Below are positions 12,047 through 12,185 of a stretch of DNA of 64,000 bases, piece after piece. The stretch lies in NCBI GenBank assembly GCA_964016885.1, contig OZ024741.1:353276001-353340000 (forward strand). The letters run 5' to 3'. The first letter of the stretch is position 1. The number at the start of each line of letters is the position of its first letter. The stretch comes from Eledone cirrhosa (Eukaryota). A program made the translations under genes and the position numbers. The notes beneath the pieces are model-generated. The model had not been told where the DNA came from and searched no databases. It saw only the letters and a program-made list of their open reading frames with translations.

Positions 12047-12185
12047 TGCCTCATATACATATTTAATTACATATTACATATGTTTCACTGCCGACCTGCT
12101 TGAGGAACGATTGAATAATGTTCGTTCCTTGAGCTGATTGACGGTGAAACATATGTAATATATAATTAAATATGTATATGATGCA
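12047..12185. repeat. Imperfect palindrome containing the 3' half of a hammerhead (same family as 3384-3475)
   Basis: Arms of ~63 bp around TTGAATAATGT. Each arm carries GAAACATATGTA-ATAT on one strand. Confidence 0.75.

Follow-up and report, generated by a model that had tools for sequence, protein, structure and literature searches.

A palindromic insertion with two hammerhead 3' halves in Eledone cirrhosa: a candidate head-to-head Penelope-like stump turned at helix II

We analysed a window of 64,000 nucleotides of the Eledone cirrhosa genome (contig OZ024741.1, positions 353,276,001 to 353,340,000; all coordinates below are those of the window) and found that the palindrome at 12047-12185 consists of two hammerhead 3' halves joined head to head. 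On balance we read it as probably the stump of a Penelope-like element (PLE) whose first DNA strand turned around at helix II of the ribozyme and was then copied onto itself. The position of the turn and its polarity are shown, at the level of sequence, by comparison with an unfolded relative located 3.4 kb into the same window. Such a relative reveals both the primary strand and the turning place, and thus forms a rare before-and-after pair.

Results

The palindrome and its arms

The 12-kb insertion and its parts are as follows.

12017..12110, minus strand: left arm, comprising the helix II 3' strand, the hammerhead 3' half and, beyond the cut site, about 57 nt of downstream sequence
near 12033-12046, minus strand: AAT-rich patch in the downstream part of the left arm
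12069..12086, minus strand: hammerhead 3' half of the left arm (motif scan), with GAAA at 12086-12083, palindromic helix III at 12082-12077, the cut site after 12075 and the helix I 3' strand at 12074-12069
12111..12121, plus strand: unpaired centre, counterpart of 3426-3436, native on the top (antisense) strand
12120..12124, plus strand: apical 5-bp stem, native second strand, counterpart of 3435-3439 (alignment and snap-back map)
12122..12211, plus strand: right arm, a mirror copy with the hammerhead 3' half and without CUGANGA; GAAA at 12146-12149, helix III at 12150-12155, cut site after 12157 (plus strand)
12212..12889, minus strand: neighbour of the right arm, a fragment of a non-LTR-like element with (TAA)n tails, a duplicated 3' end and a C-terminal ORF piece

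A preliminary description of the window, made from its letters, had proposed a fold-back at this place, and the palindrome itself is confirmed: aligned to its own reverse complement, 12047-12185 scores 147, compared with a mean of 23.0 and a maximum of 45 for dinucleotide shuffles, none of 2000 of which reaches 147, and the fold z of the segment is about -15. The two 64-nt arms (12047-12110 and 12122-12185) flank an 11-nt centre and mismatch at 9 of 64 positions, a divergence of about 14%. Gapped alignment traces them outward to about 12017 and 12211, which makes the whole insertion about 195 nt long. Three inferred CpG sites, where the other arm or the 3.4-kb copy reads CG, account for four of the nine differences. 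By our own reading this pattern fits arms that began identical, and CpG-type changes of this kind would make the structure old and not the product of a fold-back read.

Both arms hold the hammerhead 3' half only, pointing outward and ending inside helix II, and the motif scan finds CUGANGA in neither. They end about 54-57 nt past the cut site; on the left, the true end of the element possibly lies further out. We found no target-site duplication of 6-7 nt at the palindrome, the right boundary of which adjoins another insertion, and no second copy of the palindrome within the window. Since the insertion at 12212-12889 abuts the right arm, it hides the original right boundary. We take this neighbour to be an R4/Dong-like element; the Atlas matches to its ORF piece are eukaryotic.

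The unfolded relative

The homology claimed between the left arm and the 3.4-kb copy holds. The alignment of 3360-3439 with 12053-12124 scores 72, while shuffles have a mean of 20.0 and a maximum of 40 (0 of 2000 reach the score) and the best unrelated tile of the window scores 42. By blastn, 3381-3439 matches 12066-12124 at 83% (E 6e-10), and 3367-3425 matches the right arm at 78% (E 4e-6).

3384..3475, minus strand: unfolded relative, a whole type I hammerhead-like motif in a decayed copy (motif scan), with the helix I 5' strand at 3475-3470, CUGAGGA at 3469-3463, long helix II at 3462-3402, GAAA at 3401-3398, helix III at 3397-3392 and the cut site after 3390
3423..3439, unstranded: apical hairpin of helix II, with a 5-bp stem and a 7-nt loop

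The preliminary description had called this copy a complete minus-strand hammerhead. As far as the core goes, this is correct: CUGANGA and GAAA follow in order, every core base is present, and the NUH cut site is the GUA triplet at 3392-3390 (minus strand). The copy is, however, decayed and has no Rfam hammerhead match: the hammerhead families give none in 3300-3830 up to E 10, and on the whole window Rfam returns only low-complexity microRNA-type matches below the gathering score (among the 150 listed of 261). Helix III is a 6-nt palindrome (3397-3392) that is retained in both 12-kb arms. Helix I forms 5 of 6 pairs, its first position being U.U; the letter that most of the family has at 3389 raises this to 6 of 6. 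The copy contains a 7-nt duplication, and its helix II is eroded at the base, with mismatches. The closing pair G10.1-C11.1 is absent, being G.U in the 3.4-kb copy, and a U also precedes GAAA in both 12-kb arms; the family majority letters restore the second helix II pair, and the closing pair remains G.U. The predicted fold of the copy sequesters GAAA in pairs, at -21.8 kcal/mol versus -19.0 kcal/mol with the core held unpaired.

Two further loci in the window bear on the same motif. A more distant unfolded relative at 6115-6215 (plus strand), chosen as the best in the window, agrees with the 3.4-kb motif in the layout of its long helix II, and its core is decayed; it scores 37.5 against a shuffle maximum of 28.5 (n=1000). 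A decayed 3' half of a minimal-type hammerhead lies at 3691-3740 (plus strand, opposite in orientation to the 3.4-kb motif), within a separate repeat that has its own depth peak at 3720-3760 (see the read survey below); near 3610-3690 there may be a back-to-back junction of two element ends. Further hits of the 5' core motif, at 60277 and 34705, were set aside as chance or as located in unrelated sequence.

Where the strand turned

The correspondence between the two apices is as the preliminary description had it, with 12111-12121 equal to 3426-3436 at 7 of 11 letters. Replacement of the ribozyme 5' half by a mirror image is likewise upheld: the right arm scores 44 against the mirror of 3392-3425, with 29 of 34 aligned letters identical and no internal gap, versus 8 against the native continuation, where the alignment needs 15 gap positions. 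The polarity of the centre can be read from the same comparison, since the top strand agrees with the relative at 7 of 11 letters, compared with 3 of 11 for the bottom strand (20 versus 16 of 27 across the whole centre). With respect to the ribozyme, the top strand is the antisense one and has the sense of first-strand cDNA. Its sequence stays native across the loop and the second half of the 5-bp stem, after which the strand goes on as a copy of its own preceding part, which would place the strand switch at or before 12124. For the 12-kb event, then, the claimed turn at the apical helix II hairpin is substantiated, and the polarity of the loop fits a hairpin-primed switch of the antisense strand.

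On the top strand, a 3' end at 3439 yields the most stable perfect terminal snap-back within 3360-3684, at -2.4 kcal/mol (DNA parameters), a weak stem with an energy taken from a relative that is about 17-22% diverged. Across the map, at least 4 pairs form at 46 of 341 positions, and -1 kcal/mol or better is reached at 8 of 341.

A read survey of the family

We aligned four of seven listed public sequencing runs (X1, X2, X4 and X5) to 3240-3830 at 80% likeness. This placed 1536, 1562 and 874 contigs and 1628 reads, almost all of them on 3380-3480. There the summed depth reaches 40,000, compared with 2-24 for the single contigs listed, and is not to be read as a copy number. The 3.4-kb hammerhead family is abundant and also occurs in a second organism (X4). 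In X1, X2 and X4 the commonest loose end before 3381 matches the downstream part of the 12-kb right arm, and the arms of the palindrome are therefore ordinary family sequence. Loose ends past 3472-3475 differ from one another, which suggests that several subfamilies have the ribozyme core in common.

Clustering of palindrome centres at the apex hairpin throughout the family, as expected by the preliminary description, is not supported by this survey, the sensitivity of which is poor for such structures. Family depth drops at the apex in none of the four runs: the 5' side versus the 3' side stands at 40,093 (3440-3459) versus 31,478 (3400-3419) in X1, 43,233 versus 36,980 in X2, 21,977 versus 21,359 in X4 and about 1243 versus 995 in X5. 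Of 12 joints, six connect opposite strands, and none of these six is symmetric about the apex, which is a weak test; one ends within the apical hairpin (3436/3473, a single contig) and another within helix II (3450/3608). No mirror-type loose end appears among the 24 listed of 633; likewise, the survey as seen covers 40 of 375 letter differences and 24 of 4049 pieces. The palindrome of the window itself is missing as a joint, so that minority apex fold-backs may be hidden. Short-read contigs keep perfect hairpins poorly. A single entry in X1 that runs from 3440 to 3415 (depth 4, with letters between) begins at the predicted site; it is given without strand sense, and we did not count it as support. 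Apex fold-backs are thus a minority in the 3.4-kb hammerhead family, and they may or may not be clustered.

Hammerhead pattern scans returned nothing in viral contigs and nothing in metagenome contigs. A second metagenome pattern scan gave 12 loci (scores 31-42), which we rejected as chance matches to the pattern alone.

Other inverted insertions in the window

Outside plain microsatellite, we counted seven young inverted insertions within the window, leaving out those at 10755, 13132, 39143, 56601 and 20573 as older or weaker.

12047-12185: the 12-kb palindrome
29026..29138, unstranded: comparator palindrome, with a hammerhead 3' half on both arms and a centre formed by helix II (11 bp, 5-nt loop)
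28356-28930: inverted insertion
30371-30754: inverted insertion
31343-31578: inverted insertion
32656-33209: inverted insertion
43907-44255: inverted insertion

Hammerhead halves are present in two of the seven, the 12-kb and 29-kb palindromes, each with helix II at its centre. The remaining five have neither CUGANGA nor a convincing 3' half, and the ribozyme is therefore not required for the turn. Loose GAAA matches in the arms of the 31-kb insertion look like chance and were not accepted as a hammerhead half. Sequence comparison bears out the earlier statement that the 12-kb family is unrelated to the 29-kb palindrome. The latter has no unfolded relative in the window, and in both hammerhead-bearing palindromes the side kept is the downstream side. 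Arms of the younger palindromes of the window are 1-2 letters apart.

A single family, which has no hammerhead motif, accounts for the young palindromic copies at 28356-28930 and 43907-44255; in both of them the longer arm ends at the identical inner base. At its centre the 28.5-kb copy holds a 170-nt dispersed repeat that lacks a target duplication and looks as though it had been captured at the turn. The insertions at 30371-30754, 31343-31578 and 32656-33209 adjoin (TA)n runs; their centres measure about 130, 10 and 60 nt, respectively, and none of the three holds a convincing hammerhead half. The segment 30496-30586 is found again at 31090-31180.

The surrounding sequence

The window is AT-rich (GC 0.24-0.42), laden with microsatellites and of animal type. 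Hammerhead motifs occur in it elsewhere. About 225-nt tandem units at 27600-28320, which appear retrozyme-like from their sequence, include two with whole type I hammerhead motifs (27818-27886 and 28045-28106) and have an inverted relative at 20573-21160; in 27500-29320 Rfam gives nothing at the gathering score. The motif scan found further single type I hammerhead-like motifs at 29231-29294 (minus strand), 32152-32199 (plus strand) and 51305-51367 (plus strand).

An ORF piece at 19244-19564 (plus strand) presumably resembles the end of a GIY-YIG domain. It falls in an Atlas cluster with PF01541 on 15% of its members (score 0.92), a lead only, and one unlinked to the palindrome family; Pfam gives no match to this piece. 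Three other repeats are conspicuous. One of about 700 nt, both tandem and dispersed, has copies 85-97% alike at 1247-2490, 6536-7143, 9479-10040 and 40390-43680, separated by (TA)n or (TACA)n runs. At 61915-63876 lies a tandem array of almost perfect repeats, the period of which is about 37 or 74 nt. Finally, an abundant dispersed repeat of 150-190 nt, which we take to resemble octopus SINEs, lies at 22610-22792, 28560-28729, 46716-46888, 54155-54350, 55866-56009, 57070-57499 and 59389-59542.

Discussion

A proposed course of events

The source of the 12-kb palindrome would have been a Penelope-like retroelement or a non-autonomous derivative of one. Reverse transcription would start downstream of the ribozyme cut site; the first strand would cross helix III, ascend the long helix II along its 3' strand and stop just past the apex. 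The new 3' end could then fold onto the 5-bp stem, the polymerase would copy the strand just made, and the hairpin would be resolved into the chromosome. Self-priming of an antisense RNA, as proposed in 2013, would give the same product if it occurred at the apical stem. While the turn can be mapped, the part played by reverse transcriptase, its stalling and the resolution of the hairpin are steps that we infer. Without CUGANGA the product is incapable of self-cleavage, and the palindrome is a by-product, a minority outcome in its family.

Among 10 ORF pieces of the window there is no relevant Pfam match, and hence no reverse transcriptase or GIY-YIG gene linked to the 3.4-kb/12-kb family or lying beside either copy, so that the label 'Penelope-like' rests on the type of ribozyme and on geometry. 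Short stumps would not have to contain such a gene. The PLE-type features found are an inverted, 5'-truncated copy in head-to-head arrangement and a hammerhead shortly upstream of the end of the insertion. By this analogy, the insertion probably belongs with the inverted insertions of PLEs.

Alternative explanations

Hairpin-primed fold-back, the mechanism put forward in the preliminary description, agrees with the turn site and the polarity of the 12-kb event, but these do not tell it apart from two annealing cDNAs. If both strands of the target were nicked, each might have primed a cDNA at the downstream end of the element; on meeting head to head, the two cDNAs would anneal by way of the apical stem, the 5-nt halves of which are complementary. 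The junction and the part played by helix II would be the same, with no fold-back at all. According to the accessible part of the report (PMC11167929), the PLE protein of Anolis, a predicted dimer, cuts both strands of its target and extends them; unequal truncation easily explains the long asymmetric centres at 30371-30754, 32656-33209 and 28356-28930, and the opposite-strand joints of the read survey are asymmetric as well. However, both cDNAs must have extended at least to the apex. The near-identity of the arms in the younger palindromes fits self-copying, although two copies of one RNA would be equally alike. Taken together, we judge the meeting of two cDNAs to be a somewhat unlikely account. 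Improbable, in our estimate, is a chromosomal template switch after insertion, in which a fork folded at the apex of the quasi-palindromic hammerhead, copied about 90 nt and overwrote the 5' half. It predicts the same loop polarity, and the neighbouring insertion masks whatever sequence was originally right of the arm; but no native upstream sequence resumes (the best score in 11.7-14 kb is 21, against a window background of 26), the upstream motif of one other subfamily is absent, and the occurrence of inverted insertions of several unrelated families between (TA)n runs points to a process of insertion.

The turn could also have been ancestral, the palindrome having spread as a unit in the manner of a MITE or a palindromic non-autonomous subfamily. 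The two palindromic copies with a common inner end in another family (28356-28930 and 43907-44255) offer a precedent, and poor retention of hairpins in short-read contigs, a matter of general knowledge, could cause such a subfamily to be under-seen. Yet the window holds one 12-kb palindrome, neither a symmetric joint nor a mirror loose end (24 listed of 633) appears in the reads, and family depth continues through the apex; we hold spread as a unit to be quite improbable. A MITE or foldback DNA transposon as such was rejected, there being no target duplication and the family copies being mostly unfolded through the apex. Assembly artefact in the form of a fold-back read, or chance AT-rich symmetry, would be conceivable in a window so AT-rich and with so many (TA)n palindromes, but 0 of 2000 shuffles reach either of the two scores and CpG-type changes among the 9 of 64 arm differences are unexpected for a fold-back read, leaving this account with hardly any credibility. 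A stump turned at helix II and copied onto itself stays our preferred reading. A non-LTR retrozyme was set aside as a source, the window having no tandem copy of the 3.4-kb/12-kb family.

The mapped evidence consists of one event with an unfolded relative and two hammerhead palindromes overall; the case is a good example of the proposed mechanism, with one mapped event and one unmapped comparator. A broader proposition, namely that second-strand synthesis in hammerhead-bearing PLEs preferentially uses the helix II apex, perhaps under selection, as its place of priming or annealing and that PLE junction palindromes are helix II, seems to us doubtful at present. If true, such a role of helix II at the DNA level would explain the unusually long helices II of PLEs despite weak cleavage, and if the apex were the usual turning point, the fold of the ribozyme would be linked to second-strand priming.

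Comparison with known systems

The closest precedent lies in the endonuclease-bearing Penelope elements of Adineta vaga, for which the accessible part of Arkhipova et al. 2013 (PMC3846280) describes head-to-head inverted pLTRs with palindromic junctions and infers self-priming on an antisense template from these palindromes. The 12-kb insertion shares the head-to-head arrangement, the junction palindrome, the proposed antisense self-priming and a target of AT-rich simple repeats. The Adineta junction palindromes measure 18 and 38 bp, are not connected with a ribozyme in that account, and border long elements that in many cases have target duplications; in contrast, the 12-kb insertion measures about 195 nt, has the helix II apex as its junction and a polarity fixed by an unfolded relative, and lacks an ORF and a duplication. 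Inverted 5'-truncated copies are common in EN+ PLEs, including Naiads, and the origin of these inverted ends is called undefined in the portion of Craig et al. 2021 available to us (PMC8557442). Like them, the 12-kb insertion has an inverted 5'-truncated copy adjoining at the 5' end and a bias towards microsatellites. According to the same portion, which maps no junction positions, Naiads have inverted structures without canonical hammerheads, and a ribozyme is therefore not required for such structures to arise.

PLE hammerheads, in the accessible text of Cervera and De la Pena 2014 (PMC4209133), lie in pLTRs and combine a palindromic helix III with a long helix II. From that text, the features in common with our family are type I topology, palindromic helix III, an oversized helix II and mostly dispersed single motifs, and opposite-strand pairs 100-700 bp apart are on record. 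Unlike the 7-8 bp helices II given there, however, helix II of the 3.4-kb copy takes up 61 nt with bulges, has G.U in place of the conserved G10.1-C11.1 pair, and shows no bulged base before 10.1. As far as this literature was accessible, it contains no description of half-ribozyme palindromes. Animal non-LTR retrozymes are characterised in the part of the preprint at hand (bioRxiv 10.64898/2026.07.22.740005) as non-coding, PLE pLTR-derived and equipped with a type I hammerhead; they form head-to-tail tandem units with whole ribozymes, whereas the 12-kb palindrome consists of half ribozymes only. In the literature covered, incompletely and for the most part without subscription papers, we found no paper that ties inverted PLE junctions to helix II. 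Self-priming at palindromic junctions is known already; what is added here is a before-and-after pair at helix II.
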